This document shows positions 1,566-52,419 of a stretch of 64,000 nucleotides of DNA, piece by piece. The notes beneath the pieces were generated by a model. The model ran no database searches. It was given only the letters and a program-made list of their open reading frames with translations, and was not told where the DNA came from. Each line of letters opens with the position of its first letter. Positions within the stretch are counted from its first letter, which is position 1. Both the position numbers and the translations under genes were made by a program. The stretch is from Leucoraja erinacea (Eukaryota), in the NCBI RefSeq assembly GCF_028641065.1, contig NC_073394.1:16616001-16680000 (forward strand). The letters are read 5' to 3'.

Positions 1566-1839
1566 AGAATCTGTGTTCTTAGATAAAGTTGCTTCCAGTC
1601 ACATGACAAAGTTGCACAATATTAACATGAGTAATAAAGTTCGAACAAATTTACATTAATTGCATTAATTTACCTTGCTCTCTGTAATTGCTTACTGCAA
1701 TATAGAAGTAAATTGAACAAATTTACGAAAAGCAACAACAATAAAAAAAAAATAACTGCTGCTATATAATGGCATTCCAAATGATTACTATATAGTTGCT
1801 GAATATTCTTTCATGTCAGTGAGAACATCTATGTCAGCA

Positions 1840-1976
1840 GAGTCAGGGGATATGGGGAGATTTCAGTAACGGGGTACTGATTGGGGATGATCAGCCATGA
1901 TCACATTGAATGGCGGTGCTGGCTCGAAGCGCCAAATGGCCTATTCCTGCACCTATTGTCTATTGTCTATTGTCTA
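1840..1976 (+). mobile_element. CR1 LINE 3' end
   Basis: gatcagccatgatcacattgaatggcggtgctggctcgaag 3' UTR and (TATTGTC)n tail. Confidence 0.8.
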
Positions 1977-2583: not shown

Positions 2584-2907
2584 AATTTCTCATTGGCTAC
2601 ATCACCCAAAAGTACTGTATAAATTCTCTACATAAAATGATGACACACAGTTTCACTTCACCATAACTGGCTCCAAGTTGAAAAATTATTTGTCTGACAT
2701 ACAGTACTGGATTTGAAAAAATAAATTCTTCCAACTAAATATTGGAATAGCTAAAAGCTTTACCTTCAGTCTACATCACATATCCCAAACTTTCTACCCA
2801 GTGCGTCTTTCTGCCAACTATCTGAAATGTATCCAGTGTGTTTGCAACCTTATATCTGACCCCGGGCCTAGGTTGGACCATACATCCGTAAAATCACCAA
2901 GGCTGGT
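2584..2907 (+). repeat. Local direct duplication, copy 2
   Basis: Nearly identical to 1251-1565 with a few substitutions and small indels. Confidence 0.9.
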
Positions 2908-3156
2908 TACATAACATAGAAACATAGAAAATAGGTGCAGGAGTAGGCCATTCGACCCTTCGAGCCTGCACTGCCATTCAATATGATCATGGCTGATCAT
3001 CCAACTCAGTATCCTGTACCTGCCTTCTCTCCATACCCCCTGATCCCTTTAGCCACAAGGGCCACATCTAACTCCCTCTTAAATATAGTCAATGAACTGG
3101 CCTCAACTACCTTCTGCGGGAGAGAATTCCAGAGATTCACCACTCTCTGTGTGAAA
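2908..3156 (-). mobile_element. CR1 LINE 3' fragment
   Basis: (CATAGAAA)n tail; same 3' UTR as other CR1 copies in the window. Confidence 0.85.
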
Positions 3157-4246
3157 CATTACTGACTCCATCTGTCTCAGTTTGCCCATCACATAAACCT
3201 TCAACGAATACCACAAAATTATTTATCGCAGCCAAATTCCCTCAACCTCCACTCAGCATAACAAGACTGTTGCCATATCTTGTCATGCCAGGTACCATTT
3301 GCCCATCCTACCTGCGCTTGAAAACCTGTACTGATACTTATATTTTAATTTTCTCACCTCAGTTTTCAAATCTCTCCATGGCCTTGCAGTTCTCTTGTAA
3401 TTTTCTCCAGCCGTACAATTCCGCATGGTATACAATTCCTGAATGTACTTGCTCCAGTACTAACTGCTGTGCTGTCAGCAGTGAAAGCCCTAACATCTAG
3501 AACTCAGTCCTTAAATTCTATGGTTGAATCTTAAACCTTTACTTTCCACCTTGAAATGACCGTTAAAATATCCTTGACTAAATCTGTCCCAATATCTTAT
3601 CTAGATCAACAATTTATTTTTGTGCAGGAAGAATCAGCAGATGATGATTTACACCGAAGATAGACACAAAATGCTGGAGTACCTCAGTGGGTCAGACAGC
3701 ATCTTTTCTTTACTCAAAATGAAGGAACATTTTTTGGTACATTAATAAGTTATTACATTAATGAAAATAATTGTAGAATAAATCATGGTTTGTGTGTTTC
3801 CTCCACTATGGACAGTATTGGGTTTGGGTGTGTTACAGATAATGATAAATTAGCCTTCCACATACAGTACAGTAAGGTGAAAAATAAATTATGGAAGACA
3901 GTCAATATTAATGGAACTGTAGCCCAATAAGAGTTAGGATTTTCAGACAGGGAACGGAAATCAGAAATGATATCCAGAACCATTTATATTAAAGAGTAAA
4001 ACTTCCACATTTGATTAAGCTCCTGTCAGTCTTTAGCCTGCAACTTACTTATGTAATTTTACATTGTGCTACCTGGAAATAACATTAAGTAGAAGCAAAA
4101 TATGAAAATGACTAATGATATACAAGATTATTACTACGCTTTTGATGACAAAGGTTGAGATGATTATTTTAAGTTTGCTGTCTATTCTTGAAAATTAGAA
4201 AAATAATTTGAAAACCTATGTTACTTAGGATTTTTTTACAACTTAC

Positions 4247-4327
4247 CTCTGTTGTGTTTACGAAGAATTTGGTTTCATAATCTTCATTCATGGTTATCAC
4301 CCCACGCACATTCTCTTTTCTTACTAA
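4247..4327 (-). CDS. PTPMT1: PTPMT1 coding exon 2
   Basis: Hand translation LVRKENVRGVITMNEDYETKFFVNTTE; AG acceptor 4329-4328, gtaagt donor from 4246; 81 nt, in frame with exons 1 and 3. Confidence 0.95.
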
Positions 4328-5053
4328 CTGCAAGTCCAAACACATTAAGAATTATTGAAAGACAGAGACCAGAAAAAAAATGTTTGTTTGCTTTAAAAAT
4401 TGAATTATTTATTTGAATGAGTGATGTTCCAAGAATGTATAAAAATGTATAAAATCATGAGGGGAATAGATAGGGTGAATGCAAGGGTGAATGCATGGAG
4501 TCTTCTACCCAGAGTTGGGGAATTAATTACCAGAGGATATATTTTCAAAGTGAGAGACGTAAAATTTAATAGGAACCCAAGGAAAGTTTGCAAAGTTTTG
4601 CGTTTGGATTGAATAGTTTATTGCCTTGCCTTAAAGTAACCATTTCTAGTGTCCAGTATAGCATCTACTGAACTAATACTGTGGATGAAAGCTCCTAATT
4701 CATAGGTCAGCAGTATTCATTCTGCTTCTCTTAGTTCATTGAATGTTTTTGTTGCTTCTTGTGTACAAAGTGTACTAAGGTCAAGATAAGACTCAACATT
4801 TTTAAGGTACTTTAAAACTGGAAAAACACAAGCATGCTGGAAAAGTGGCAACTCTGTGCACTGCCTCAGTGCAATGTATTATTCTTGCACTACAATCATT
4901 GCACTCTTGGAGGTGGGTGTGATTGTGCTTATGTAGAGTAAGATTTTATTGAATTGTTTGCAAAACTAAGAATTTCACTGTATCTTGGTACATGTGACAA
5001 TAAAGTACCATTGAACAACCAAGGGATATGTGAAAATACACAACCATATTTAA

Positions 5054-5292
5054 GGGTGGCACAATGGTGCAGCAGGTAGAGTTCCTGCCTCAAAGTGCCA
5101 GCAATCAGGGTTCGATCCTGACCGCGGGTGCTGTCTGTGTGGAGTTTGCACGTTCTCCATGTGACTGTGTAGGTTGGCTGCAGGTGCTTTGGATTTTCCC
5201 CACATCCCAAAGATGTACGGGTTTGTAGGTTAATTGGCCCTCTGTAAATTGCCCCTAGTGTGTAGGGAGTGGATGAGAAAATGGAATAACAT
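5054..5292 (+). mobile_element. HE1/V-SINE-like SINE
   Basis: tRNA-like head (ggttcgatcc B box) plus V-domain ggagtttgcacgttctcc...ccacatcccaaagatgt. Confidence 0.85.
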
Positions 5293-5295
5293 CGA

Positions 5296-5996
5296 TCAGA
5301 TTAGGAAAAGGGGAGGAACAACGACTCCTAGGTGTCCTTGTAAATCAGTCACTGAAAGTAAGCATGCAGGTACAGCAGGCAGTAATGAAAGCTAATGGCA
5401 TGTTGGCCTTCATAGCAATTGGATTTGAGTCTAGGAGCAAGAAGGTCCTACTGCAGTTGTACAGGGCCCTGGTGAGCCAGCACCTGGAGAATTGTTTTGG
5501 TCTCCTAATTTGAGGAAGGACATTCTTGCTATTGAGGGAGTGCAGCGTAGGTTCACCAGGTTAATTCCCGGGATGGCAGGACTGACATATTATGACAGAA
5601 TGGATGGACTGGGCTTATATTCACTGGAATTTAGAAGTTTAAGAAGGGATCTTATAGAAACATATAAAATTATTAAGGGATTGGACAGGCTAGATGCAGG
5701 AAAAATGATCCTCATGTTGGGGGGGTCACAGTTTAAGACTAAAGGGTAGGCCATTTAGGACTGCAATGAGGAAGATCTTTCTCAGCCAGAAAGTCGTGAA
5801 TCTGTGGAATTCTCTGCCACAGAAAGCAGTGGAAGCCAATTCACTGTATGTATTCACAGGAGACTTAGATATAGCTCTTGGGACTAAGGGAATCAAGGGA
5901 TATAGTGAGAAAGCAGGAACGGGGTACTGATTCTGGATGATCAGGCTCGAAGGGCTGAATGGTCCTACTCCTGCACCCATTTTCTATGTTTCTATG
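5296..5996 (+). mobile_element. CR1 LINE ORF2 3' fragment
   Basis: FWSPNLRKDILAIEGVQRRFTRLIPG peptide and tctatgtttctatg tail. Confidence 0.9.
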
Positions 5997-6429
5997 CCCC
6001 CACTGCCTGACAATGTCACACCTTTTATGCCCTCGTCCTCCCTGATGGATTTGGCAAATGATTCTGTACAACAGACAAACAAGACAGGGGAGAGTTGGCA
6101 AACCTGCCTGACTCCAGACCTGATGGGGAAGTTATCTGATTCCCATCCGTTAATTTAGACTGCACTACGGTGTTGCTGAGTAGCCAACACGAGTACACAT
6201 TTGTATGCTTTTGCCAAATGAAAGATCATTCGATTATAGCATGAGATCAGTATGATCTAACGCCGTCAAGAGTGTCAGATTATTTCTTGACAAGTATGAA
6301 CAGAAGCTGTGTTATCCTTTCATTACCTTTCCCATCCACACTGCAATATTGCTTTCCCTTCCTTCTAGCCCGCTAGCACTTCCCACCCTCACTTCCCACC
6401 CTGCAGTCTCTCTTACTGCTTCCTCCACA

Positions 6430-6990
6430 TGATCCCATTCCCACTTCGCCGATGTCATGTGTTGCCGATCGTGCCCTGGAAATTGTCACCACCAGCAACC
6501 CCTAGACCTCACCCCCCTTCTCCCCTCCGCCATCCACTCCCCCTACCCATGATGTACCCTCCTCGCCCTTCCATCCCCTCCCCTTTCCCCCCGCCTCTTC
6601 CTCCCCCTGCCGTCCACTTCCCCCGCAGTTACCGGGCCTCACTCCTACCTCGTCGGTGAGTGAACGGAAAGGAAGCGCCCCGATGATGACGGTCTGGTCA
6701 ATCCGATCATACCAGGGGCGACCGAACATCTTGGACATGAAGACGTTGTAGCCCAAACTCGGGTAAAACACGATCCGTGCAAACAGCGCCGCCATTCTTA
6801 ACTGCCGTGTCCGCTCAGCCCCGGCCCGTCACATTAGATGTCCCCCCTGCCCTGCTGGCAACATTGCCGCCCGTTCTTGCTCGAGCATCTTTGGTGCCGC
6901 CCGCCGCCGGGAAGACAGAGACCCCCCATCAGTCAGCTTCAGAGCACCTGGCGTCTGTAATAAAATAGAATATTGGAAACCCGCTGGCCC
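6430..6990. promoter_or_regulatory. CpG island / promoter of PTPMT1
   Basis: Locally GC- and CpG-rich against an AT-rich background; spans exon 1 and its upstream region. Confidence 0.7.
6649..6795 (-). CDS. PTPMT1: PTPMT1 (mitochondrial phosphatidylglycerophosphatase) coding exon 1
   Basis: ATG at 6795; [19 protein letters not shown]...[22 protein letters not shown] matches the PTPMT1 N-terminus; GT donor (gtagga) at 6648-6647; 147 nt, phase 0; lies in a CpG-rich block. Confidence 0.95.
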
Positions 6991-10288: not shown

Positions 10289-10483
10289 TCAGAATTCTTT
10301 AAGTTGTCTTCTGATGATTTCTGGCAATGGCAGTGTGTCTATGTGGACTTTGTCTACCAGATGTTGCAGGACTGTGTATAAACACTGTTCTTGCAATGAC
10401 AGAAACCGACAGCTTCTCATCTCCAGATGAAGTTCTGTTTCTGCTGCTGTAGAACTGACAATAGGATACAGGGGTACTCCAAC
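10289..10483 (-). CDS. SPSB3-like last coding exon (SPRY end + SOCS box)
   Basis: Hand translation VGVPLYPIVSSTAAETELHLEMRSCRFLSLQEQCLYTVLQHLVDKVHIDTLPLPEIIRRQLKEF*; BC box SLQEQC and Cul5-type LPLP; AG 10485-10484; TGA 10291-10289. Four exons total 696 nt = 231 aa + stop. Confidence 0.92.
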   Translation of the reverse strand, partial: VGVPLYPIVSSTAAETELHLEMRSCRFLSLQEQCLYTVLQHLVDKVHIDTLPLPEIIRRQLKEF

Positions 10484-10744
10484 CTGAGAGGATTCAAAAG
10501 AAACCAGTGTATAGAAATGAAGTATTGTATTAATTATTATTAAGTATTATTATATGCCACATTAATCTCCGTTCTTAAAATATTTTACACTATTTCAGTG
10601 CGGTACATTTAAAAAAAAATGTTTGTTCATGTCAGATGCAAGAGTGATCTTCTTAACAGTCTAAGGTTTGGATGGTCTTTTTTAAATAGATTATAATCTT
10701 CAAAAGGATACACATGGTGTCTTCATATTAGTTTTCAATTAATG

Positions 10745-11293
10745 ACAGTATCGTGTTCAGTTCTGGGCACCATGTTATAGGAAAGATATTGTCAATCTTG
10801 AAAGGGTTCAGAAAAGATTTACGAGGATGTTACCAGGACTAGAGGGTGTGAGCTATAGGGAGAGGTTGAGTAGGCTGGGTCGCTATTCCTTGAAGCGCAG
10901 GAGGATGAGGGGTGATCTTATAGAGGTACACAAAATCATGAGAGGACTAGATCGGGTAGATGCTTTGAGTCTCTTGCCCAGAGTAGGGGAATCGAGGACC
11001 AGACGGCATGGGTTCAAGGAGAAGGGGAAAATAATTAATAGGAATCCGAGGGGGCAACGTTTTCACACAAATGGTGGTGGGTGAATGGAACAAGCTGCCA
11101 GAGGAGGTAGTTGAGGCTGGGACTATCTCATCGTTTAAGAAACAGTTAGACAGGTACATGGATAGGACAGGTTTAGAGGGATATGGACCAAGCACAGGCA
11201 GGTGGGACTGGTGTAGCTGGGACATGTTGGGTGGTGTGGGCAATTTGGGCCAATGGGCCTGTTTCCACACTGTATCACTCTATGAATCTATGA
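10745..11293 (+). mobile_element. CR1 LINE 3' fragment (second subfamily) in an SPSB3-like intron
   Basis: LPGLEGVSYRERLSRLG...GDLIEVHKIMRG peptide; ctatga-repeat tail. Confidence 0.9.
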
Positions 11294-11764
11294 ACCCTGA
11301 GAAATAAGACAATACGACACATGACATGCAGCCACTACAAATAATTCCCAAATCATGGTAAAATGCAGTTTTTAAATTGTCCCCCAGATATTGCTGTGCT
11401 CCCTGAGAAAACTACACTGTGTGATTTCAATTTTCTACTCTTACTGATGCTCTCAGGCCAGTGAGATCCAGTCAACATTACGTCCAAACAGGTCAAAGTA
11501 CCGATAACAAACTGACTAAACACCACGCTCTTCACACCAGACTCAAAGAGCAGGAAAAGAAAATATTATACTATTGGTTTTAACAGGATTCACAGGACCA
11601 AGAGACAATTTTAGTATCCACTGTGCCATCCAAGCACATAAAGTAATAGAAACCACTGTATATGATAAAGCTACTTTTCACCAGAGCAAGGTAATTAAAA
11701 TGTCATTCTGTCACTCATAATACAAAAAACAATACTAAAATCTATGGAGGTCTGTACTAATTAC

Positions 11765-11955
11765 CTTATTGAGGCCTGTAAATGCAACCCCCAAATTGAG
11801 TCCATTTTTATAAAAGACCATAGTACCATCATACAGATTTAAATCGACTCCTATGATCGTAGATGTCTCGTAGAATGGTTCAGTGTACTGCCTGCTTTGT
11901 CCACCATGCCAGACTGTACCTTTGTAAGATAAGCCCCAGCTTTCCAAATCCATTC
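11765..11955 (-). CDS. SPSB3-like coding exon 3 (SPRY)
   Basis: GMDLESWGLSYKG...IIGVDLNLYDGTMVFYKNGLNLGVAFTGLNK; AG 11957-11956, gtaatt donor from 11764; 191 nt. Confidence 0.92.
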
Positions 11956-12269
11956 CTGTGAGAAGAGTGACTTTAGGTTAAATAACAGATTAATCCAAAG
12001 ACAACTTTGATCTGAATATTTCTACCAGCGTGAAGGAACAGCACTCAATATGAGCCCCATTGAAAACCAGCCCAAAAACTTATGAAATGGTTTCATCTGG
12101 ACTTGCTCCGAGGCTTCTTTACTTCTTTGCAATGTAGATTATTATGGAAATAAAAAGTAAACCACAGATCTAAGAATGATAAAAAAATTAGAGCAGTGTC
12201 TAAGTGACATGAAATATAGAAGAAAAAAAAATTTCAGCAATGAAACTGGTAAATAGATCAGGAATTTTT

Positions 12270-24000: not shown

Positions 24001-25813
24001 CCATAATTATATTCCTTCATGCCAATTCTGATTAAAGGTCCCTAATCTGAACTGGTAAATGTTTTCCTTGTTCACAAATGCTACCTGACATTGAATATTT
24101 TCACTATATTCTGTTTTATTCCATAATTTGTCCCGATTTCCATTGACTTCAGGTTTACTGTTGGTTTTCCTCACAAAATTACCAACTAAAGAGCAACCAT
24201 TTGTGACCATTTATCAGCTTTAAGTAGCAGTTTTGTTTACTTTCTGGGGGAATTGGCTCCTTGGTAATTTTGCTAAGTAAACATGCGATTAAATGAAAAT
24301 ATGATTGATTCATTTGCGTTATATTGGATCAACAAACAAGTTGTTGAAGGAATTCAGCAGCATCTGTGGGGTGATATTTATATCTACACTCCTCCCCCCC
24401 CCCCCCCCCAACAATTGCTGCTCAAACATTGTTCCTCCAGCAGATTACTTCATGCCCACATTTGTAGTATTTTATTGTCTCAATTTTAATTCTGTTGTGA
24501 ATAGGGTGATATGTTTTTTCAACTATTTCAATGTCTTGTTCCCCCATTTATAATCCCGATTGATACAATATTAATTACATTCTGCTTTCCTTTTTATAAT
24601 GATGAGTGGCAATTTTCAACCATAGTTTTAATGAATCACAAATGCTAAAAACATAAATTATATACAACCCAACACAAATTTATTCTATTTGACTGTGATT
24701 GTGTTTTCATAAATCAAAATCTGCATGCAACTCCTTAAATAAACAACATTACTTAAATTGATGCAAATAAAATAAACAATTAACAGAAGTTAAGGTTACA
24801 GGTAAAATGATAGAAGTATATGAGTAAAGTTGCAAAATAAAAGAAAAACATATTAAAGCCCATTTGTTCCCTGAATAGGGGATAGAACATGTTTGTAGTG
24901 TTAGTTGTAAATAAGTCCACATATAGCAGGAACATTGAAAATAAGCATAAATACATTTTCAAAATTATTAAGTATTGCATGAATATGCCATGCTGTGTTA
25001 TTTTTCAAGATAGCATTATGGCAAGAAAAACTGCATGTGCTTAAACAGCTGTTCCAATGCAGTGTGCCACAAGGTTTTGAAATGTGGGTCCAAACGCACA
25101 GCTTCCTTAATTGCTGAATTAAGGAAGGTCAGAAAGGGCAATCAGTCCACACACTTGAAAGAAGGAAATGTGAAATTCACGTCATATTGTGAATGTTGAT
25201 TCCTAAAAATGGTTTCTCTACTTTTGAGGCACCAAATGAGTATTAAATATATCCTGGAAGTTAACAGGTAGAATCAAGGAACTGCAGATGCTGGTTTATA
25301 TAAAGGACACAAAGTGGTGGAGTAACTCAGCGGTCAGGCAGCATCTCAGGAGAGCATGGATAGGTACATTTGGGGTCAGAACCCTTCATGCCTTTTTAAT
25401 CTTATTTCAATTCTACCTTTGGAAGTTAATAATTAAAAATACTACTTTAAATCCGTCTGAAGAAGGGTCCTGAACTAAAACTCCACCCATCTATGTTCTC
25501 CAGATATGTTGCCTGACCCGGTGAGTTACTCCAGCACTTTGTCTTCTGGAAGTTAATAACACCAGCTAGTATTTGTAATCACCAAAATGCATAAACCTCA
25601 ATGCAACTATTGATACTGAAGATATATCATTGATACTAAAGAATATAATTGATGAGTTAGTTTCTTCATTTAAAAAAAATCTTCTTACAATGATATGGCT
25701 TCTAAACTTGGATGTCAACAATGAAAAGTACTATTCTAAATCACGATTACAAATACCATTTGTCAGAAAAGACAATTATTAATATTTAGATTGTGTCCAT
25801 TTGAAATTCCAGC

Positions 25814-25819
25814 TTTATT
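25814..25819 (-). terminator. Candidate polyadenylation signal of the SLC26-like gene
   Basis: AATAAA on the minus strand about 100 nt after the stop codon. Confidence 0.5.
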
Positions 25820-25917
25820 ATGAATAAATTAAAGCCAACAAAATGCCAGAGCAGAAGTATGGTATTATGTGTCAATCATAATTTCTCTGATTGGGTGGAG
25901 AATAATCAGAATATTTT

Positions 25918-28254
25918 TTACAAAGCTGATTCATATTCAATAACCCTTGGCATTGCCGATTTAATATCGGTCCTTTGATCGGAAATATTCTCGTCTCTCT
26001 CCTCAGGGCCAAAGGCTTCATTTGTACTGTTACTTGCATCCGTCTTAATTTCGATATCCTCACATTGGGTTAGCATTTCACCATCCGTCTCAAGAATACA
26101 TTTGGATCCTTGTGCACTCTGGTTTCTCTCAGCTGCTTGTTGTAGGGAAAATAGTACAGCATCATGGATACTGCTGAAAGTGCAGCTTTGGCTTGTTGCT
26201 TTGAAATAACCCATTTGTTGTATAGTTTTTAAAACTCCACTTGAACAACCAGCAAGAATAAAGCTGATGCCAACACCTTGATATTTCTTAAATAGATTAA
26301 TTAAAGCATTAGCCCCTTCATCGTCCACAAAGCTGACAGACCCACAATCCAAAATAACAGTGTGAATGACTGCAGTTTGTTTGGATATTTTACGCCTATA
26401 CAGTACAGTATTATTCATTCGCCTCAGAGCATTTTCACCCAATGCAAGAAACTGTGAAGATTCCATTAACATATGATATTTATCCTCCTCACTGTATAAT
26501 TTATTATCACTTCCTGAATTTTTACGAGGGTAACAATTTATTTTAACTTTCATCCTGGACAATAAATAATCAACATTCCCATAATATATAGAATGAAATA
26601 TTTTTATAATTTTAATCCCAACTATTTCTTTGGCAGTTTTCTCCAAAGACATGTCTATATAGTTTTCAGTATTGGGAATATGACCTAAAATGGCCATAGA
26701 AGGCCTTTGAAGTCTGTGTAGAGTGAGCAAAATAGAGAAAATTATGCCCACACCTAAACCAATATCTATGTCTAAGAGACATACAGCCAAAAACGTTATG
26801 ATTGCAACCAAAAACTCATATTTTCTCTTCTTACATACAAAACAGTATTTCCAGAAGAACTTGAAGTACCATCCCAGATTCACAATTGCAATAGCACCGA
26901 GAACTGCTTTTGGCACCAATGGAAGTAAAGATTTTGCACAAAGCAGAGCTATTAGACTAAGGCCAGCTGCAATCAACCCTGCAGCTTGCGTTTGACCCCA
27001 GGTTTTTTCCTGTACCATAGATTGTTCCCAAACCCCAGACGCAGCAAAGGTACCCAGAAATGACAGCAACAGATCACAGACTCCCAAAATAATAGTCTCC
27101 TGATGTGAACGATAACTTTGGTTTTGTTTTTTGGAGTTTTCACTCCCCATCGAAATGTTAACTGCAAATGTCACAAGTGCCATAGCAACAGCATCTGCAG
27201 CAACGCTAGCTATTAACGAGAAAGAAGGAAGAATGGGTTTTGGCAAAGTGAATGGATAATTATTTATGAGGCTGATATTGTATCTCTCCTCAAGTTCCAA
27301 CCAGAATGACAAACACATGGAAACAGCTATTGCAATAAACTCTACAGGTATAAGATGCCTACTATATGTACAATTTATTACTTTAAAAGGTGCCAGAAAT
27401 GCCAATGTTGTTAAACCCATAATTACTGAAAAAATGTTTATCTTATTAGTATTTACAATTATGTCTTTGGAAGAATAAAAGAGAGATAAAGGACCATGAT
27501 GAACTGTCCCATCAATACCAAGCAATATCCTCAGGAAAATGATTAATAAGTGCAAGGCTAATCCAGCTCTGAAGCCAAGCATAACAGGCTTGGAGATGCA
27601 AGTTCTTAGGAAGCTGACACAAAAAACTCCCATAAAAATTAAAATAATTCCAGAAACACAAGTGAGAGTAGCCACATGCAGTTCTCTTGAACATTTTGGA
27701 GAACAGTCACTGTCAGAGGCAAGTTCTTGAGCTTCAATATGGCTTGTGCTCTTGGCAATGAGAAGAGCAGTGACTGCAGACATCCCATAAGACAGATGTT
27801 GAGTTGTGCCAAGGAAGCAATATAAGATAGTGGTAACTAAACTTGTATAGACACCATTAACAGCTGGCTCTCCAGCACAAACAGCGAAAGCAAGGGACAG
27901 GGGAATCGTGAGTAGACCCACACTAATTCCAGACAGCAGGTCTCCGATAATCCATGTCTTTACTTTATACCTGGGAAACCATTTAAGGAAAGGAAAAGTT
28001 CGCCGGAATAATTTCTTCAAATTATATGTAACTGGTAAAGTTAGTTCAGATGCTTTTTTTTCATATTCATACAATTTTTCTGCATTGTGATTATCTATGC
28101 GGTGAAAATAAGGAATGTCACCAGTAAATGAAACTCTATATGGTGTCTTTGCAACAAAAGTATAGTTTCTGTCAGTTCTGACCAGAGGGATGTTTGAACC
28201 AGATGGGTCTGCATTTGTGTCACTGGACCAAAAGGACTCTGAACTTCCCAGCAT
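25918..28254 (-). CDS. Intronless divergent SLC26/SulP-family anion-transporter-like protein (about 778 aa) with STAS domain
   Basis: One uninterrupted ORF with GDLLSGISVG, YCFLGT, HQE (NQE), VQExTxGxTQxAG, VNL and STAS ILDCGSVSFVD motifs; C-terminal ESAL. First in-frame ATG after an upstream in-frame TGA is at 28254. Confidence 0.92.
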   Translation of the reverse strand: MLGSSESFWSSDTNADPSGSNIPLVRTDRNYTFVAKTPYRVSFTGDIPYFHRIDNHNAEKLYEYEKKASELTLPVTYNLKKLFRRTFPFLKWFPRYKVKTWIIGDLLSGISVGLLTIPLSLAFAVCAGEPAVNGVYTSLVTTILYCFLGTTQHLSYGMSAVTALLIAKSTSHIEAQELASDSDCSPKCSRELHVATLTCVSGIILIFMGVFCVSFLRTCISKPVMLGFRAGLALHLLIIFLRILLGIDGTVHHGPLSLFYSSKDIIVNTNKINIFSVIMGLTTLAFLAPFKVINCTYSRHLIPVEFIAIAVSMCLSFWLELEERYNISLINNYPFTLPKPILPSFSLIASVAADAVAMALVTFAVNISMGSENSKKQNQSYRSHQETIILGVCDLLLSFLGTFAASGVWEQSMVQEKTWGQTQAAGLIAAGLSLIALLCAKSLLPLVPKAVLGAIAIVNLGWYFKFFWKYCFVCKKRKYEFLVAIITFLAVCLLDIDIGLGVGIIFSILLTLHRLQRPSMAILGHIPNTENYIDMSLEKTAKEIVGIKIIKIFHSIYYGNVDYLLSRMKVKINCYPRKNSGSDNKLYSEEDKYHMLMESSQFLALGENALRRMNNTVLYRRKISKQTAVIHTVILDCGSVSFVDDEGANALINLFKKYQGVGISFILAGCSSGVLKTIQQMGYFKATSQSCTFSSIHDAVLFSLQQAAERNQSAQGSKCILETDGEMLTQCEDIEIKTDASNSTNEAFGPEERDENISDQRTDIKSAMPRVIEYESAL

Positions 28255-30513
28255 CTTCTTTAGCTTTATGGTGATCACTGCCCTTCGTCACATTATGTTC
28301 ATCTTTGTGTTCATTGAATATTTCTCACATACGTTTTCATTTTTTCAATTATCTAAAAATAAAATAAAATTACAATTAAATAAATCATACATCTACTTCA
28401 TTTTAGACCAATTTTGAGTTTGAGTTTAGTTTATTGTCACGTGTTCCGAGGTAAAGTGAAAAGCCTTTATTGCATGCTAAACAGTCAGTGGAAAGACAAT
28501 ACATGATTACAATCAAGCCATCCACAGTATACAGCTTATAGAAGGGAATAACGTGAATAATAATTAGTGCGAGATCAAGTGCAGTAAAGTACGATCAAAG
28601 ATAGTCTAAATGTTTCAGCAAATGAATGCTAGTGTTCCTTAACTTCCCAAGATATTAGCCAAGAATTGACATCAACATTGAAATTGGGCAAAGGTATTGA
28701 ACATTCCCCGCACTGATCCAGTCATACCTCTGGCATTGCTTTTATGTAAATGCTCGTCACCATCAGGTGTCACTTCAACAGGTTATCCCTCACCAGGAGG
28801 TTATCCTTCACCAGGATCCCTCACCAGGAGGATATTATTGCTCATCGGGTGCTGTGTGCTGTACAAAAGGTCTGACAATTTGGAACAAGTAGTTAGGTCA
28901 GCATGTGGATAAAAAACAGAAATACATCAAAGATAAATTCCTAGTCAATGCCAGAGGGTATAGAAGTGGTCAGGAAAATACACTATTATAGATAATATCC
29001 TCTTTGTGACTGAGATAAATAAGAGAAACTATGTGCATTATTTTCCACATAGTTAGACTGATACAATAATGAGTTTACAATTAAAAAAGCCAGGGACCTC
29101 AACAAAGGTCATTTATATCTAACACCAGAATAAGTAAAACTAAAGAAATATAACAGATTTTGATTGCTCGTTTACCTTTTTACAACTCCAAACATTTACA
29201 CAAAACATTTACAACTTCAAACATTTTTTAAATTACAAAAAAAAATTCTAGCCAATAGTCCATTTCAGCAACAATTATGCCATTTCTCAAACCACTGGAA
29301 GTGGCGAGCATCATATGAAAATGTTGGTATTTGACTAATGGTGCATAATTCTTGATACAATATTTCTTCCAATTATTTTTAGGCTTGGTCTTTTTCCTTT
29401 TATTTGTGTTTTTAGCATTACAGAGAGGAGAGATAACAATCATTCGCACAGTGTGAAGCTAAGTCAGGCTGTGGTCTGTTGGAATTGGGCTGGTGACTGG
29501 TTGTCTGGTCTGCCTACAGTTTGGGGTGTTTGATGATCGAGAAAAAGGTGCGGAAGATATTTATTAGAATGGCACCAATGTCAGGTGCGAAGAAATTCCG
29601 GGGATTTTCTCCTTGAAATAAAAGTTGAGAGTAGCTTTAGTCAAGCTATAAACTATCATGACTGTCATAAAGTAAATGGAATAAAGCCGATCTCCTTGGC
29701 GGATGGTTTGAGAACCCGAGGCACAGATTCAGTGTTAGGAGAAAAAGGCACAAAGGGATGTGAAGACACTAATTTTATGCAGAGACGGATAATGATCCAA
29801 AACTCACTGTATGAAAGAGTGGAAACAGAGCCAATAAAGGAAATTAGATGAGCCCTTACCGAAAATATTTTGCAGAGATTTGGGCAAAGAGACTGAATAG
29901 ATTATTGTACAGTAAAAACAAATGATGGGCTGAATGGCATTCACTGTGCTGCAGCAATTCAAAGGTTCTAATTACAGCAGGAGCAGGATATTTTAAGGCT
30001 GTAAGGGGGGGAAATTCCACCATAAGTTGGATCAGTTGATCAGAGGAGGCACTGAGGCAATTATGGGGCAGGGCAATTAGAAGTGAGGAAACATTAACAA
30101 TTTATTTCCGTGCTCATTAGGCAACATTGAAAAAAGTCATAAAAATAAACCTCCCTCGATCTCTTCTGGCTGAAATCGTGCTCGCTGCAAGCATTTTATC
30201 AGCAGATTTGGCAGTGGATGGGTGGCTTCAGCTAAAACAGTGAGTGCATCCAAATGATGTCACCATCAGGCAATTTTAACAATGTAATCAGGTTTCTGTT
30301 TGTTTAAGGATGACATGTATCTAAAAGTAAAATAATTGTTTGAACGGCATCCAAAATAAATGGTTCAAAAGTTCCCCAAAGTTGAGGTTAAATCTCTTGC
30401 ATGCACCATTCCCTAGCCAGCTGCCTTGGGTAAAATCGGTTAAAGAGATCAGCAAAACTACAAATTTCACTTTTAGTCCTGTGAATAAAAATATTGAATA
30501 ATTTTGCACTTAC

Positions 30514-30630
30514 CGATTTCCTTGGGCTGTTGTTTTGGTTAATCAGCAGAACAGTAGTGGTTGTTGAGAGATTTGAAGCGACCCTTTGAAGCACTGCTGT
30601 GAAGTCCAAATGTAGTCTCCCAAATAAGGA
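30514..30630 (-). other. Candidate non-coding 5' exon of the SLC26-like gene
   Basis: Consensus donor tcg|gtaagtg (GT at 30513-30512); matching T-rich acceptor tttttag at 28354-28353 just upstream of the CDS; 5' boundary unknown. Confidence 0.3.
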
Positions 30631-32040
30631 CTAGCATGGTGACCACTCGCTAAAAATAGACATGCTATATGGTAACTCAATCTATTTGCATGATATTGGT
30701 CTTTACAGTTGGGAACCCATTAAAAGTACACTACCATATTCTAGTAAGATTTTACCCATTGCTCATGGAGATAAAATTAATATAATTTAGAATGTACAAA
30801 ATTACACAATTTATCTGTTTATCATGTTTGTTTTTTAACAGTTTAATGTGTGATTATTTACTGCATTAAGCATTCTGCTTTATGAATCATTTAATTTCAA
30901 ATGAACAACAACATTCTTTAACAAAACACCACATTGAAATTAAAGACTTATTTTTATCAGTCTGAAGAAGGGTCTCAATCCGAATCGTCACCTAACAATG
31001 TTATCCACGGATGCTGCCCGACCTACTCAGTTACTCCAACATGTTGCATCTGTTTTTGCAAACCAGCATCGGCAGTTCCTTGTTTCTACTGTGTTTTTGT
31101 TCCTCACTGACATTTTTAACAGCTAATTTCAGATGAGTACTAGGTTAATTTCCCTATTTCTTGCACACTGGCAGCAACCCTGTGAGTATCCCCTAAATTG
31201 CCAATAACTCAGTACTACCAGTCATCAGACATAAGTACTGGACAACCCTCTCTGTTTCTAACTCCAGCTACAGCACATGTGAGGTGCTAATTGGAAGCTG
31301 CGGATTCTCCCAGCAGAAATATAGAAACAAGAGTCACCCTGGCTGTACCGTCTCAGTGACTCCTCTTTGAAGTTAGTAACTAGATCTGTTTGTGCCTATG
31401 GCTCTTTACAGCTGGGAATCCCATCAATTATCCATTGCAAAGTTCCACCACAGCAAATTACATTGCTCACAGAGATAAACTGAATAATGTACTGGATCTA
31501 ATAATTTACTTTAAAGTACATAATGGAACCTGGTTTTACTTGTTATTTTCCTCTTCTGTTCCATTGCACTTGACAAATGTAAATATTCTTTCTGTCCTGT
31601 CTGAGCTTTGCTGGTTTTCCCCCTATTTCACACATTCCCTCTTATCCAAGTTCTTGTTATCCTGTTCTTTCAACTCTATTCCCAATAAATTGCTGATCAT
31701 CCAATCTTTCTTTCTGGCTGAGGGCAGTGATATTATTCATGGACATCAATCCTCAAGTCCTGCTTATTCAAATAAGACAAGGAGTCTTATTCAAATTTGA
31801 CAACAATTCATTTGCTCAAAAGAAACAACATTGACTCTTATCTGTAATAACACCACCTCTATCATTGTTCTGACGAACGGTCTTTGACTTGGAACTCTGT
31901 ATCGCTATCCATATATTCTGCTTGACCCACTGTGGGATTTCAGCATTTTCTGTGTGTATTCTTCTTCAGACTGAACTGAACTCTCGTCGGTGAGAGTACT
32001 TGTGATTGTCTGAAAAAGGGTCTCGACCAGAAACGCAACC

Positions 32041-41769: not shown

Positions 41770-42430
41770 CTGGTGTAAACCAGCGTCTGTAGTTCCTCCT
41801 CCACCAATCACCTGACTAAAACCAAAGATATCTTTGCTACAGTCTGAAGGAACCCGACCTAAAATGTTGTCTGTCCATTCCCTCCACAGATGCTGCCCTG
41901 ACTCACTGAGTTACTCCAGCACTTGCTAAAAATAGAAATAGTTAGAAGTATTCGACAGGTAAAGCAACATGTGTGGATAGCAGACAAAAGTGCTGGAGAA
42001 ACTCAGCGGGTGCAGCAGCATCTATGGAGCGAAGGAAATAGGCAACGTTTCGGGCCGAAACCCTTCTTCAGACTGGGCGGGAGAAGAAAGGTGGATAGCA
42101 AGAGAGTTAAACCTTCTAGGTCGACGACCTTTCCTCTCGAAGCTGAAGAAGGGTCTCGGCCCGCAATGTCACCTCTTTATCTTCTCCAGAAATACTGCCT
42201 GATCCCTCCAGCGTTTGGTGTCTATCTTCGGTGTAAACCAGGAACCTGCAGTTCCTTCCTACACGTCAGAGATGTTAGCCTGACTCGTTCACTCACTTCA
42301 TCCCAGCACATGGACAAAAATGCTGGAGAAACTCAGCGGGTTCTTCTCCTTCTTAAACTCTTAATCATCCCAGCACGTTGTGTCTGTCTTTCAGTGTAAA
42401 TAAACCAGGAACCTGCAGCTCCTTCCTACA
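41770..42430. mobile_element. Cluster of Penelope-derived terminal units in both orientations
   Basis: Repeated ctgaagaagg...cgaaacg, gctgagttactccagc and gtaaaccag...ctgcagttcc motifs. Confidence 0.75.
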
Positions 42431-43850
42431 TCAGCGGTGTGGAGCAGCGTTTGGTTATCTGATCCCTTTGCTCCGGCGCCCCCTGGCCCCCAGCGCGAGC
42501 GCACAAATACATACGAGCGCGCACACAAACGAACGAGCATAAGCGAGCACGCGCGTTAAATTTGCATCTTGCATTCGGTTGGTTGTGGACGCGAGATTGA
42601 GGAGGCGGCGCGCGGATCTGGCGCAACAGGGCTCGAGCAGCGGACAGCCGGCGGAGCGAGCGCCGCACACGCCGTTTGATGCCCAGTTATGAACTAAACG
42701 GTGTATATATACACACACAGCACGCCCTTTGCAAGGATACCGGCGCCGATTCTTGGGGAAAATACAATAACTTCTCACACAAAAAAAAACACCTATAGTT
42801 TTTGGAACTAGAGAGAAGAGAACCCCCCCCCCACAGATTTCCGCACTTGCAGTTGCGAGCAGCAGAAGTTCGGCGAAGAGAGTTAAAGGGGCCGCAAGTT
42901 GCACAGAAGGCGGAGTCACGGTTTTCAGTCTTTTCGGTTTATATTTAAAAATCATAGGGCACCGCAGATGACAAGTGAAAGTTTTTTTCTCGCCCTCCCA
43001 CTGATATTTTTCACGGACTCGCAGAAGTGAGCGGATGGTGAAGTTTGGAGGAGTTCGCTGTTTCGGATAATTAAAGAACCGTTATCAGGAGAGGAGTTGC
43101 AGACTGAAGAAAGGTTGCACGGCTCATCTCCGCCCGGATCACAGTGTCAGGACGCTCGCTGTGCTTTATGTCTTGAAGAGTTGGACAGCACCCCATCTGC
43201 ACTGACTTGGCTTGGACGTGTGCAGGCTGTTCCAAGCTGCGCGCCTCACACAATGGCGGGATTGTACAACTCCACCTTGAAGACGCTGGAAGATCTGACA
43301 TTGGACTCGGGTTATGGGGCAGGGGATTCTTGCAGATCTCTCAGCCTCTCCTCCAGGTCGAACTCTCAAGCCTTCCAAGCAGCCCACAACAGAGGGAACT
43401 GGTGGTATCTTTCTGGCTCCATGAATAGCCGTAATAACAGTTGGGATACCGTCAACACAGTGCTGCCGGAGGACCCGGAGATCAACGACATCTTCTTTAA
43501 ATGCCCCCGGCTCCCGGAGCTGGAGGAATTCCCATGGAGCGACGACGACATTGGACAGATTCTGAAGAAAGGGAGACCAGGAGAGTGTGGAAAACTCTTC
43601 TCTCAGGATGCTATCAGGAAATTGTCCTTCTTGTTGAGGAGAGCTTTGATCAGGATCTCACGGGAGGCGCAGCGACTGAGTGTCGTGCACTGCAAGTGCA
43701 CCAAATTCGAGGTCCAGAGCGCCATCAGACTAGTCCTGTCCTGGTCCCTGTCCGAAAGCTGCATCTCTGCCTCAGTTAAAGCCCTCTCCCTGTACAACAT
43801 GAGCGCCGGCGATAGGCTGAGGAAAAGCAAGAGCTCCAGGTACCTAGTGT
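42430..43850 (+). promoter_or_regulatory. CpG island / promoter and 5' UTR of ABTB2
   Basis: High CpG density, octamer ATTTGCAT near 42560, TATA-like tatatata near 42703, directly upstream of and overlapping coding exon 1. Confidence 0.75.
43253..43839 (+). CDS. ABTB2: ABTB2 coding exon 1 (N-terminus and H2B-like histone fold)
   Basis: [34 protein letters not shown]...[15 protein letters not shown]...LRKSKSS closely matches the vertebrate ABTB2 N-terminus; Kozak acaATGg; GT donor at 43840, phase 2. Confidence 0.93.
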
Positions 43851-44289
43851 ATTATTTTGTATATGTCGAATAAACAAGCTGAACGTAAGTTTAAATATTG
43901 TTACGAGTGGGTACGGTTAAGTCAGCCAGACGTGCTTGCAGTGCATATATTAGGTCTATGCACAATCACTGCATGCTGCAAAGATCCTGGTGAACTGAGG
44001 AGGGCACATTGATCCCAGTTTCTCACACAGCACATATTTAAAACTAAATGAGTCCCCTCATTGAGGCACAAAGAAAGTTGGTGTGCAATTTGGATGTTTT
44101 ACATTGGTGTACAAGGTGTGTTTATTCCAAGGTGAAACTGCAGATTGGACAGATAAGAGGAATCTTTACAGCTCAAACTAGCCTTGCTACCCTTGACAGT
44201 TTTAAAAGCTGGCAATGACAATGGAAACTGTTCAGTTGCCCACATGAAACCCTATACTTTGAAGATTATGTTTTAAAGGTGTTAAAACT

Positions 44290-48681: not shown

Positions 48682-49361
48682 TGGATTTGCTGAGGCAAAG
48701 AATATAAGGATAGGAGTTATGCTGGATCTGTAAAACATGTGTTAAGCCACAATTTGAGTACAGTGTGCAGTTCTGTGCAGCAAATATGCACTACAGAGGG
48801 TGAAGAGAAGATTATGAAAATACTGCCAGGACTGAAAGATTGTAGTTATGAGGATAGGAAGCTAAGTCAGAATGATCAATTTACCTTGGGAGAAGGGTCA
48901 TAACCTAGATTAGGGAGGAGACAAAGAGCTATGTCTTCACCCAGTAGTTGATGTGGTTCTCCAGTTGACTCACTGAAAATAATTGTATACCTAGTGCTTG
49001 AAATGGGATTAGATTGGTAACTGAAGATAGACGCAAAAATGCGGGACTGGCAGCAACTCTGGAGAGAAGGAATGGGTGACATTTCGGGTTCGAGATCCTT
49101 CTTCAGATTGGTAGCTTCTTTTCTGATTTGCACAGCAGATTACCTCTTATGTTGTAAATTTTCTGTTGTTTGGTGGTTTTATGAGATAGTGTAAATGCTG
49201 TATTGAAAAGCAGAATATATATTGAAGGAAAATGGGCAAGTTTCCAGAACTGAAATCATTTCTGGTAGTTGAATGACATGCCCTTTTGGAGTTCTGCCAT
49301 CTTTATTCCTTGCTGATCTGATTTGGACATGTGTTAATGTCGCTTTTATCAATGCTTTCAG

Positions 49362-49657
49362 GTGTGGCCTTACTTTCTCAGTGGGACGCTTCTTTAGATG
49401 GATGGTGGACACAAGAGTTTCAGTCCGCATCCATGAGTATGCTGCTATCTCTTTGGCTGCCTGCATGGAGAGTCTGCTGGAAGAGATTGGGATCAGAGTA
49501 GCAGCCGGGCATGGTTCCGAAGGAGGAAGCGGAGGCATGCATGACAGCAGGCATGAGTTGTTGACTGAAATGCTGGAGATGTGCATCAACAATGACGCTG
49601 AACTTTGGGGAGTCCTGCAGCCATATGAACATCTTATCTGTGGCAAGAATGCAAATG
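49362..49657 (+). CDS. ABTB2: ABTB2 coding exon 2 (H2A-like histone fold); rest of gene beyond window
   Basis: (R)[31 protein letters not shown]...[24 protein letters not shown](G); tttcag acceptor 49360-49361, gtaagg donor from 49658; frame joins exon 1. Confidence 0.93.
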
Positions 49658-52419
49658 GTAAGGAGAGAGGGATAAAACCCTTTTGAAGTGTTGCTAATTC
49701 AGTCTATTCACTTGCACTTTCATGTTAAATGGTGAAAATGATAAAACTGTAGAGGAAGACGTTAAAACATAGAGGACCATCTCTGGGAAAGATCAAAGAA
49801 TGTTATTCAGTAGAAGAGAGTAAAACTTCAGTTGTAAAGTATGTTTAATTGATTTTTTTTGGCAGTGAAAATATGTGGGTTTTAAGAAGAAATCTCATAC
49901 CTGAGTAAATCGCGTGTTTTTCTCTTGCTAGTTTTATTTCAACACCTTTGCAAAAGGCTAAGGTCTAACGTGCAAAGCAAACAGATAGATGAAAATGGTA
50001 ATATTAGATTATACACAGATAAGCAGTGTGACACCGTTTGTATTTGGTAAAATAATAAACGTATGGAGAATTGAGTTGGAGGTCCTAACTCTTGCAAAGG
50101 AGCGTGTCCACAGAGAAAAGAGATGCAATTCCATTCTGTGCACAGTTGGCAAGCAGAGAACATTCTTGTATCATTTCCAATTTGAAATAAACCTCCAAAA
50201 TAATCCACAATAAATTAAAATTGTGGCTCCCCAGGGGCATGCACCCTTGCAAGACCCAGAGATGGCATCAGCTGTTACTGGAATCTTTCTCTGTTGGGAG
50301 TTGTGGACCTGAGGATTAGTATTTAATTATTGTTCGCAACCTGTATTTGTTTTGTTTTTTTTAATTGTTGTGGGAGATTTGTGGTGAGTTCTCTATATTG
50401 GCAGTGCTCTACCTCTCCTTACAGTGAGGTTTTCCTTGAAATAAGAAGCGTGCAAATCAGGTACCTCTGCTTAAGTTTCAGGGCCATTTTAATTGTTGTT
50501 ACAGGTGACATTGAATGTGTGAGAGGTGATAAAAAGAATTGTAGGTTTATTAAATAATATAACATATCAATTCTAATATGATGGTATAATATGAAACATT
50601 ACAATGTAAACATTTAGTTTAAACTTTTGATTACTGCTGGTCGCATTTGCTCCTTATGTCCTGAAAGACTATTTATCAAGGCAATATAACAAATATCATA
50701 TTTCACAACGTGACAAAAAAAACAATGTATGGGCTTTTTATATTATAAAATATTTGTTGGTATTGTGCTCTGAAACAGAATACTGATTACTAAAGGGAAC
50801 ATAATTAAATGGTGCTATTAAATAGAATTAATCATAGCTGTATGCTAAAAATAAAATTAAATTGTACTTTCATTATATTTTCAGTCCATTATTAAGTAGA
50901 AGACAAGCTTGTGTGCTTCTAGTGGGATCGGTATTTTTTTTCTCTTCAGGAAATTTGAAACTGATTAAAGTCACACAGTTCAGTAGTCAATGATTTATGT
51001 TAGTCTTAAAAATGTACATTCAAAGGGGCAGTGATTTTTTTTTGAGTTGTATCTAGTTTAAAAATCGGAATAAAAGCAGATGGATTGCTATAATAACGTT
51101 GTTAAAACTTTCCAAAAGTAAAATGATGATGGATGAGAGAATTTCAGAGATGTGACTATTAATTCCAAAATGTCATCATTTCAACAACAGCAACTACAGA
51201 GTTTTAGACTACAGCTGAACAAATGGATTAATTAATTCACAGGACTTTTCTCCAATTTCTTCCATTAAAAAAAAAAGCTGGGAAATTTCATCCCTTGTTA
51301 CCACAGAATTGAAGGGTTGATTAAATATTTCTGCTTATCAGTATTCAATCTCGTTGAGGTTTAAACTGATTGGCTTACAGTATCAAGCTTGGATTAAGAG
51401 AAAAACGTGGTAATTATGTCTGTGAAACTGCCATTTGCTATCATAGGCTGAGCAGTAGTGTTACTCTATTTAAATTATAGGACTTTGAGGGGTCTCTTGC
51501 TATGTATTTAAAAATCAACTGAGCTGAAGTTTTTGAAATATCTATTTCCTAAACAAGAGTCAATTTATTTCGTACTCACATAAACTATTTGCAAAAATCA
51601 GCTTCCTGATATTTGCCCAATATTCACTCTTCCTCTCAAAAAGTGTAAACTGGTGTTACTTCAGAATTAAAACATGTGTATGGCCATAATAATTTTATTA
51701 TATGTTGGCAAAAACCATTGGCAATAAATGTGTCTAATTTTGGCAATTCTTCAAGTCAATATGAAGAATCAAGCAAATAAACTGGAGCTTGATGTTGTTA
51801 CATTAATTAAAAACTTAAAGAACAAGTAACAACAGAATAATTCCAGATAATAGTCAAGAGAAATTACTTCTGAAAAATTCCAATTCCTAGAGTTGTAGAG
51901 AGAGCCAAACGTAGAGATCCCTTTAGTTTATTGTCCATGTTGAGCGTCAACAATACTTTCTGTACACTTAAATCTACCATAGCACATTTTATTCATAAAC
52001 ATTAACTTTGACCCTTCCCCTTAGACCTGTGTGATCAAGGAGAAATGTAATATAGTCATACCAACCCAGTGCGAGGTGAATACTTGCTCACTGGTTAGAA
52101 TTGCCTGTAATTTTACTGGAATTAACATTAAAGTGAGATCAGCTACAATAAATATGATCAGGCTGATGAAGAGGGCTTTGTGATTTAGACAATTAGTGTA
52201 TAAAATAACTACATCTGAGATATGAGCGGTTTGTCTTTGACAAAACATTTTTTGAGTTCATTTGTTTCAGGGACTGGGACAATGTTGCATGCGATACAAA
52301 AGCACCATTGTTTGAAAAGACAGGCAGTTTGTATTTTGTCAGATGTAGGGACAGACCCATATTTTTTCTATTGTGACTTCAAGCACCAAAATAGAACATG
52401 TAAAAAGTGAATAACTGAA

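Follow-up and report, generated by a model that had tools for sequence, protein, structure and literature searches.

The proteins of the SLC26 family dimerise, and they have one fold in common with those of the SLC4 and SLC23 families. Whether a given member is an exchanger, a leak, a motor or a nucleobase symporter has been argued from point mutants at the same residues, which in the SLC26 proteins make up the canonical anion site: a Gln on transmembrane helix 1 (TM1), a Phe on TM3, and a Ser or Ala together with an Arg or Lys at the start of TM10. The present work concerns a gene of the skate Leucoraja erinacea in which none of these is kept. It lies on the minus strand of a 64,000-nucleotide stretch of contig NC_073394.1 (assembly GCF_028641065.1, positions 16,616,001 to 16,680,000; called the window below), encodes what is apparently an undescribed vertebrate SLC26 paralogue, and places a Glu at the position of Ser398 in prestin. 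A change of the S398E type, together with loss of the Arg, the Gln and the Phe, has been fixed in its family for about 420 million years, so that nature offers a test of what a tethered carboxylate does: change the class of substrate, couple protons or freeze the elevator.

In prestin (SLC26A5), the engineered mutant S398E is reported to retain non-linear capacitance while salicylate sensitivity is gone (10.1101/2021.08.03.454998), and less chloride is bound to it in simulation (10.1101/2024.01.29.577264); anion binding in prestin has been described as structural, with S398E substituting for the anion (PMC10699807). At the adjacent Arg, R399Q largely or fully abolishes the capacitance of rat prestin, and a mutant of the TM10 Arg abolishes transport by chicken prestin (both PMC3988826). 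R399V abolishes capacitance as well, and small uncoupled currents are described for R399V and R404V (PMC11078650), while R399E was found to keep capacitance in one study (10.1101/2021.08.03.454998) and to lose it in another (PMC3988826). The same Ser398 is reported to superpose on E290 of UraA (PMC3988826), a binding-site residue of that carrier (PMC11362169). In SLC26A9, a fast chloride conductor, the Arg is replaced by Val (PMC11078650); its TM3 Phe sets the pocket size, K443 and K270 shape the vestibule, and R205 faces the inner vestibule (PMC6656431). The sulfate site of SLC26A2 comprises Q125, F165, A439, L440, A441, K442 and N490, and its variant Q125L is pathogenic yet leaves 40-70% of transport (PMC11059360); oxalate is reported to be bound in SLC26A2 between TM5 and TM12. 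In SLC26A7, F104A increases the currents and a second site lies on TM5 (PMC12356840). Both anion sites described for pendrin use residues that are altered in the skate protein and its relatives (PMC10771415), and SLC26A8 is reported to stimulate CFTR via its STAS domain (PMC6813192).

The coding sequence of the skate gene and the positions of its anion site are as follows, in window coordinates.

25918..28254, minus strand: SLC26 coding sequence, a single exon for 778 residues, with an SLC26 transmembrane domain and a STAS domain
27898..27900, minus strand: L119 on TM1 (prestin Q97, SLC26A2 Q125), invariant in the family
27778..27783, minus strand: M158-S159 on TM3 (prestin P136-F137); S159 is invariant, position 158 variable
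27022..27033, minus strand: V408-W409-E410-Q411 at the start of TM10 (prestin S396-L397-S398-R399; SLC26A2 A439-L440-A441-K442; UraA Y288-G289-E290-N291)
26872..26874, minus strand: G461 on TM12 (prestin K449), a basic residue of the vestibule lost; the Gly is invariant

The open reading frame runs through its 778 codons without a stop, and its product shows the domain order of an SLC26/SulP protein: Sulfate_transp (PF00916) at residues 103-487 (217 bits, E 3.6e-64), followed by STAS (PF01740) at residues 540-699 (52 bits), both above the Pfam cut-offs. The intact SLC26 frame with a STAS domain that an earlier note had read from the letters alone is thus borne out. An AlphaFold model of the protein, built from 145 sequences (mean predicted local distance difference test score, pLDDT, 82.6), is predicted to have the 14-helix inverted repeat with the TM3 and TM10 half-helices of the SLC26/SulP fold. 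Prestin is the best match to it by Foldseek (E 3e-42) and in a fold comparison (Z 53.5, root-mean-square deviation (rmsd) 3.5 Å, 574 residues), where many SLC26 structures follow only a few Z units away, and it is the top sequence match of phmmer (E 2e-112). Aligned by phmmer with human and gerbil prestin and with a thermostabilised prestin, the protein shows no gap over TM1 and TM3 (offset +22) or over TM8-TM12 (offset +12), and the correspondences are Q97>L119, P136>M158, F137>S159, S396>V408, L397>W409, S398>E410 and R399>Q411. These are the replacements that the earlier note had proposed from a manual alignment, and its codons for L119 (27900-27898) and V408 to Q411 (27033-27022) stand; M158 is at 27783-27781 and S159 at 27780-27778. 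In the model, where pLDDT is 94-96 across residues 401-420, the TM3 helix begins at A160, and a short strand precedes the TM10 helix, whose first residue is W409. E410 and Q411 would therefore sit in the first turn of TM10, the location of the anion site, a placement that rests on the alignment and the predicted secondary structure. The departure from the canonical site does not exclude the protein from SLC26, since SLC26A9 and some SLC26A8 and SLC26A10 proteins likewise lack the Arg.

The replacements are not peculiar to one skate. In a protein search 11 sequences stood out at 63-99% identity, from skates, rays, sharks and the chimaera Callorhinchus; almost all are labelled 'prestin-like', the Amblyraja protein is at 99%, and the match after these drops to 29%. 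A Rhinoraja member came from a separate search. All 13 family proteins, that of the chimaera included, have L119, S159, V408, E410 and Q411, so that the orthologues keep L, S, V, E and Q rather than the Q, F, S and R of prestin; the fixed set is limited to these five residues, since positions 158 and 409 vary among orthologues. In a profile search of 1.84 billion representatives the family formed a single cluster, at 1391 bits, and the others among the 150 listed scored at most 494. The other 149, representatives of SLC26 clusters at 50% identity, served as the comparison set. In the column of E410 they have no Glu, one Asp and one gap; in that of Q411, Arg in 141 and Gln in none; in that of L119, Gln in 133 and Leu in 4. 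The ten best matches outside the family are a nematode fusion protein, amphioxus and hemichordate proteins and ordinary vertebrate paralogues, one of them unnamed. No orthologue outside the cartilaginous fishes was seen among the matches listed (20 of the 149 representatives were looked up by name), the ESM Atlas returned generic SLC26 clusters, and a homologue search with a fish prestin gave only teleost prestins among the 120 matches listed.

Since the split of chimaera and elasmobranchs about 420 million years ago (PMC6238376), the protein appears to have changed at an ordinary pace: skate and chimaera are 67% identical, versus 71% for SLC26A6 in the same species pair. The stem branch of the family is very long (1.7-2.0 changes per site), and the pattern reads as a burst of change on the stem followed by ordinary constraint. 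Invariant columns make up 51% and 51% of the two core halves, 38% and 44% of the gate halves and 34-47% of STAS, which makes the core the best-conserved part of the membrane domain.

Four RNA runs were mapped to positions 25550-30900. In two of them (X1 and X2), spliced contigs cover most of the coding region at a word depth of about 4-14; in the two raw-read runs (about 6% of each read), X16 has no coding depth and X24 almost none. The gene is thus transcribed, though apparently not everywhere. The features of the transcript are these.

30514..30651, minus strand: non-coding 5' exon (minimum extent), in X1 contig 7 and X2 contig 14; donor GT at 30513-30512
28353..30513, minus strand: intron of the 5' untranslated region (UTR), GT..AG, 2161 bases; the coding exon begins at 28352
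28724..28871, minus strand: alternative exon or acceptor of the 5' UTR, seen in run X2, where one contig at depth 5.2 joins 30514 to 28871; 3' end undefined
25550..25917, minus strand: 3' UTR, with X1 contigs reaching the edge of the mapped stretch and AATAAA at 25819

Both joints, from 30514 to about 28352 in the X1 contig and from 30514 to 28871 in the X2 contig, are GT..AG on the minus strand; the former is seen in one contig, whose record positions 1-138 and 143-1915 flank four unplaced letters. Between the X1 and X2 contigs and the window there are ten coding differences, eight of them silent and two conservative (L237F and D12E), giving a ratio of non-synonymous to synonymous polymorphism (pN/pS) of 0.076 (P = 2.5e-4; a small sample of ten variants in two runs). 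Splicing in two runs and the silence of eight in ten variants tell us that the gene is not decaying; it is under purifying selection. Some minor features of the 5' region may be added. An in-frame ATG lies 13 codons upstream of the skate start (28293-28288, minus strand) with a TGA directly after it; the annotated proteins of four sharks are longer by 13 residues at the N-terminus, an extension with which this ATG aligns, and that of a fifth shark by more. There are six upstream ATGs within the spliced 5' UTR. A short repeat at 28414-28592, within the 5'-UTR intron and outside the transcript, draws very high depth from other loci in all four runs and is a SINE-like (short interspersed nuclear element) sequence.

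A further question is which SLC26 gene this one came from. The database label 'prestin-like' can mislead studies of hearing and ion balance in sharks. The skate genome has separate SLC26A5, A6, A3/A4 (two loci), A9, A10, A1 and A2-type genes. Its SLC26A5 is a multi-exon gene on C22 with a canonical site, placed among the A5 sequences at 100/100, which rules out the window gene as the prestin orthologue. With these genes at separate loci, the window gene is an extra paralogue and 'prestin-like' a best-hit label. Trees were built from 34 rows (six family rows and one prestin dropped) and from 31 rows, SLC26A7 and A11 having no rows in them. The 34-row tree gave no resolved sister group and did not join the gene to SLC26A8; the 31-row tree made it sister to tetrapod SLC26A8 with support 45/92 (453 of 1000 bootstrap trees), a grouping that joins two long branches. 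A tree constrained to the grouping with SLC26A1/A2/A12 lies 1.89 log-likelihood units above the free tree and is the best likelihood found (P of the approximately unbiased (AU) test 0.563), while sisterhood to A1/A2/A12 plus amphioxus appears in 62 of 1000 bootstrap trees. The A5 grouping was not rejected either (AU P 0.116); the AU tests took in A5 and A1/A2/A12 and left out A6, A9 and A10.

A discrete sequence marker bears on the same question:

27691..27705, minus strand: C184-x3-C188 in the extracellular loop before TM4, common to SLC26A1/A2/A12

Cys-x3-Cys at this spacing, a subfamily marker defined in the present analysis and not taken from the literature, is found in 12 of 12 family rows, in all three A1/A2/A12 rows and in human SLC26A2, and in none of 37 other rows; among the 149 listed representatives it occurs once, in an alligator sulfate-transporter-like protein. 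By this marker the gene would descend from the sulfate transporters SLC26A1/A2/A12. The family further resembles these proteins in a PQS-type Ser at 120, a non-Gln at 116 and a splice acceptor shortly before the start codon (the skate A2-type gene, too, has an acceptor-like site just before its ATG), and over 323 columns it uniquely shares 12 residues with A1/A2/A12, 8 with A8 and 6 with A5. A piece made of the loop and TM4 matched SLC26A2 alone among SLC26 structures; at E 7.4 it ranked below chance matches and was not counted. Against SLC26A2 itself the family reads Q125>L, F165>S, A439>V, A441>E, K442>Q and R492>G, all sulfate-site residues except N490 being altered. Identity to the A1/A2/A12 proteins is about 29-33%, the neighbouring genes differ, and there is one coding exon here versus the two reported for SLC26A1/A2 of jawed vertebrates (PMC12357937). 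The intron that A1/A2-type genes have after the start of TM4 is lacking, and the window gene reads through. The absence of coding introns and the new genomic site would suit a retrogene, but there is a 5'-UTR intron. On rough odds the parent is probably of the A1/A2/A12 group, doubtfully SLC26A8, and less likely some other member; most likely, an A1/A2/A12-type transporter was copied to a new site before chimaera and elasmobranchs parted, and the copy first changed very rapidly and was then conserved. Prestin, the earlier note's reference, is probably the wrong one; in the A1/A2/A12 proteins the same TM10 positions have Ala or Val and Lys. Given that slc26a12 is reported missing from cartilaginous fishes (PMC11145369), it is possible that the window gene is a displaced and transformed A12. 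We found no description of the gene in the openly licensed literature, and the passages on cartilaginous-fish slc26 genes in PMC11145369 and PMC12357937 do not mention it.

The resemblance to SLC26A8 lies in its fast evolution, its often Arg-less site, the lost equivalent of K449, and a Lys at 417 that the family shares with 28 of 28 A8 sequences. At the R399 position, 28 tetrapod A8 proteins have Thr (11), Gly (7), Ala (3) or Arg (7), so that Arg is lost in 21; they nonetheless keep Gln97 in 27 and Ser398 in 25, have Glu in none, and lack the Cys loop. In reptiles and birds the Arg of SLC26A8 is mostly gone, and cod and skate SLC26A10 have Thr there. No separate A8 locus was found in the skate genome with two A8 queries (one stricter search). 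In human, SLC26A8 lies between SRPK1 and MAPK14. The window gene, on C18, is away from the SRPK1-like and MAPK14-like genes on C24, and no SLC26 match was found 5' of these in C24:18.81-19.01 Mb or 16.15-16.35 Mb; a control locus gave 12 pieces. About 2.7 megabases (Mb) separate the two C24 genes. An ELAPOR-like gene precedes SRPK1 on its 5' side, and SLC26A8 is found on neither side.

The changes in the family are not confined to the canonical site. A scan for family-wide charge changes (12 family rows against 40 other SLC26 rows) picked out three more positions.

27568..27570, minus strand: R229 on TM5, a family-specific basic residue, Arg or Lys in 12 of 12
27139..27141, minus strand: E372 at the cytosolic end of TM8, a family-specific acid
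27073..27075, minus strand: D394 on TM9, where all 40 other SLC26 rows have Asn

At position 229, Arg or Lys occurs in none of the 40 other rows and is outside the eight commonest letters among the 149 listed representatives. T116, T362 and H384 are also fixed along the path; K291 (prestin K276) and N459 are retained, and an acid of TM5 is replaced by Lys in 11 of the 12 family rows. Position 229 lies three residues inward of family position 226 (SLC26A9 R205), 60 degrees from it on a helical wheel, and four residues from the SLC26A2 residue that lines the oxalate site. It plausibly faces the cleft between core and gate, and a basic residue may in effect have moved from the core to the gate, opposite the new glutamate. 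The loss of positive charge proposed in the earlier note thus holds locally, at TM10, but does not hold for the protein as a whole: with a Lys or Arg fixed on TM5, charge has been rearranged, not simply lost. Net charge summed over 13 positions (-1 to +1 in the family, +2 to +5 in the others) gave an apparent charge flip, which was set aside since several positions had been picked after the changes were seen and R/K229, K222 and D394 had been omitted. Elsewhere on TM5, residues 239-240, Ser-Gln in most SLC26 proteins (Gln in 144 of the 149 listed representatives), are hydrophobic in the family.

Both tails are also conserved.

25921..25935, minus strand: YE[S/T]xL at the C-terminus, within a disordered tail; kept in all 12 species

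Six of the terminal nine columns are invariant, versus 5 of 54 in the preceding tail, and the motif agrees with the class I PDZ-binding consensus. The N-terminal tail has 61% invariant columns in ten elasmobranchs. Within it, in a part modelled at low confidence, residues 40-43 (28137-28126, minus strand) read RVSF, a match to the PP1-docking consensus RVxF; all ten elasmobranchs whose N-terminus is complete have the motif, Mobula as RVSY.

Outside SLC26, the TM10 motif recalls UraA of Escherichia coli. With the TM9 Gly in register, and over an underlying alignment that is weak, G289-E290-N291 of UraA falls without a gap on W409-E410-Q411, so that both proteins would carry an acid and, directly after it, an amide where TM10 starts (E290-N291 versus E410-Q411). 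The two have the 7+7 fold in common (Z 29.6, rmsd 3.8 Å, 373 aligned residues) at 12% identity; the skate protein differs from SLC23/NAT carriers in having Gln411 instead of Asn, and a STAS domain. The resemblance is a convergence at two residues and not membership. An identical five-residue run in TM1 of the two proteins is seemingly out of register and was treated as coincidence.

What the protein does with such a pocket we infer as follows. Since the pocket has lost positive charge and gained a glutamate, its cargo is probably something other than the usual anions, or there is none. The reading we favour, tentatively and at a little under an even chance, is a functioning elevator in which a protonatable glutamate is tethered and the substrate or the coupling has changed. 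The carboxylate of E410 would occupy the helix-dipole site between TM3 and TM10 as a tethered anion, possibly paired across the core-gate cleft with Arg/Lys229, and ordinary exchange of chloride, sulfate or bicarbonate at the canonical site would be off. The elevator would be unlocked by protonation of E410, or by a neutral or zwitterionic solute bound via E410, Q411 and S159 in a pocket enlarged through the Phe>Ser change. It would then operate like the H+-coupled carriers of the UraA/SLC23 type, or with a gating glutamate as in the CLC proteins, within an SLC26 body anchored by the PDZ-type tail. We favour an elevator because many new polar residues are fixed along the path and because no part of the membrane domain is better conserved than the core; R/K229, E372, D394, T116, T362 and H384 would be unexpected in a dead, drifting pocket. 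We also count in its favour that, by analogy with the S398E simulation, an acid at the site may interfere with anions. Several observations nevertheless weigh against this reading. Buried residues can stay conserved for folding alone; L119 and V408 render the site more hydrophobic, as expected of a disabled one; two pocket positions vary among orthologues (M, T or A at 158, W or C at 409); and the conserved PDZ-type tail is equally compatible with a scaffold. The E410-R229 pair is inferred from a helical wheel, and the hydrophobic moment of the homologues puts the polar face 87 degrees off position 229. On the side of UraA, hhalign gives a weak match (probability 2.5%, E 0.019) with a gap at the motif, and E241 and H245 of TM8 and F73 of TM3 are without counterpart (TM8 here has V361/T362 and V365). 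A more specific version of the favoured reading, which we consider unlikely, is that an SLC26 exchanger became a glutamate-gated, H+-coupled carrier of neutral or zwitterionic solutes at the origin of the cartilaginous fishes, by way of a convergently gained UraA-type Glu and a basic residue moved from core to gate. Cartilaginous fishes retain urea and trimethylamine N-oxide, and an osmolyte could be conjectured as the cargo; this would be the first natural animal SLC26 protein that is not an anion carrier by design.

A possible though rather doubtful alternative, not far behind the favoured reading and also raised in the earlier note, is that the protein does not transport and acts as a scaffold or regulator through its STAS domain and PDZ-type tail, for example on CFTR as SLC26A8 does in sperm. 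E410 would then stabilise the folded, anion-free site and, with R/K229, lock the core to the gate; the protein would be a pseudo-transporter, of a class little documented among solute carriers. The structural role reported for the anion in prestin and its replacement by S398E (PMC10699807) suit this idea, and so do the end of transport in the TM10 Arg mutant of chicken prestin, the disease variant Q125L of SLC26A2, the C-terminal motif of 12 in 12 species and the conserved N-terminal tail. The action of SLC26A8 on CFTR through STAS (PMC6813192) would be a precedent in a protein that has lost the Arg in 21 of 28 cases and of which no separate gene was found in the skate, and expression looks restricted, with coding depth near zero in the two raw-read runs. 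The fixed polar residues of the path and a core more conserved than STAS speak against it; the grouping with SLC26A8 has only 45% bootstrap, and SLC26A8 keeps Q97 and mostly S398. Nor does the loss of the Arg by itself mean the end of transport, as SLC26A9 conducts chloride fast with a Val. Like the skate protein, SLC26A9 has no basic residue at the start of TM10 and a similar terminal motif, and we have to consider, as quite unlikely, an anion carrier or leak that is uncoupled like SLC26A9 or uses a non-canonical site between TM5 and TM12 with the charge of R/K229. The uncoupled currents of R399V and R404V (PMC11078650), the raised currents of SLC26A7 F104A and its second site on TM5 (PMC12356840), the oxalate between TM5 and TM12 of SLC26A2, the 40-70% of transport left by Q125L alone (PMC11059360), and the retained K291 and N459 with the TM5 acid turned into Lys would all fit. 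SLC26A9, however, keeps the site Gln, Phe and Ser and the TM12 Lys; in the skate family the first three are lost, the TM3 Phe among them, the deep-vestibule Lys (K443) is a Gly, and only the equivalent of K270 is kept. A carboxylate in the site is moreover reported to repel anions. The skate has its own SLC26A9 on C24.

Two further readings have little weight. That the protein serves hair cells or electroreceptors as a voltage sensor or motor in no need of anions, a natural prestin S398E, is very improbable. The Ser>Glu mutant named in the earlier note proves position-exact, with the Glu at the place of E410 (10.1101/2021.08.03.454998; 10.1101/2024.01.29.577264); S398E prestin is reported to retain capacitance without anion sensitivity, and prestin is the best match in the PDB by sequence and by fold. 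The motor reading is nonetheless weak because R399Q (PMC3988826) and R399V (PMC11078650) abolish capacitance, although R399E is reported to keep it in one study and to lose it in another. The family additionally lacks Q97, F137, S396, R399 and K449, has a PDZ-type tail and is not orthologous to prestin, and the mammalian P136 that has been linked to fast motor action is absent. A decaying, functionless duplicate, finally, has practically no probability left. The single coding exon, the stem branch of 1.7-2.0 changes per site and the little or no signal in two RNA runs might have suggested one, but it is refuted by the conservation and the variant pattern: the gene is intact in 13 species, skate and chimaera differ hardly more than in SLC26A6 (67% vs 71%), the transcript is spliced, and with eight of ten variants silent (pN/pS 0.076) evolution is not neutral, so that the decay which the earlier note had named as the counter-case is not what is seen.

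The window contains a few other genes.

About 900-6828, minus strand: dual-specificity phosphatase gene (Pfam DSPc), which presumably resembles PTPMT1
About 10289-11977, minus strand: a SPRY-domain exon and, below the cut-off, a SOCS-box exon of an SPSB-type gene, downstream of the SLC26 gene and on the same strand
43253-43873 and 49273-49686, plus strand: exons without a Pfam match, behind a CpG-rich stretch at 42001-44000; we take them to resemble ABTB2

Catalase is located on the same contig, about 15 Mb distant.

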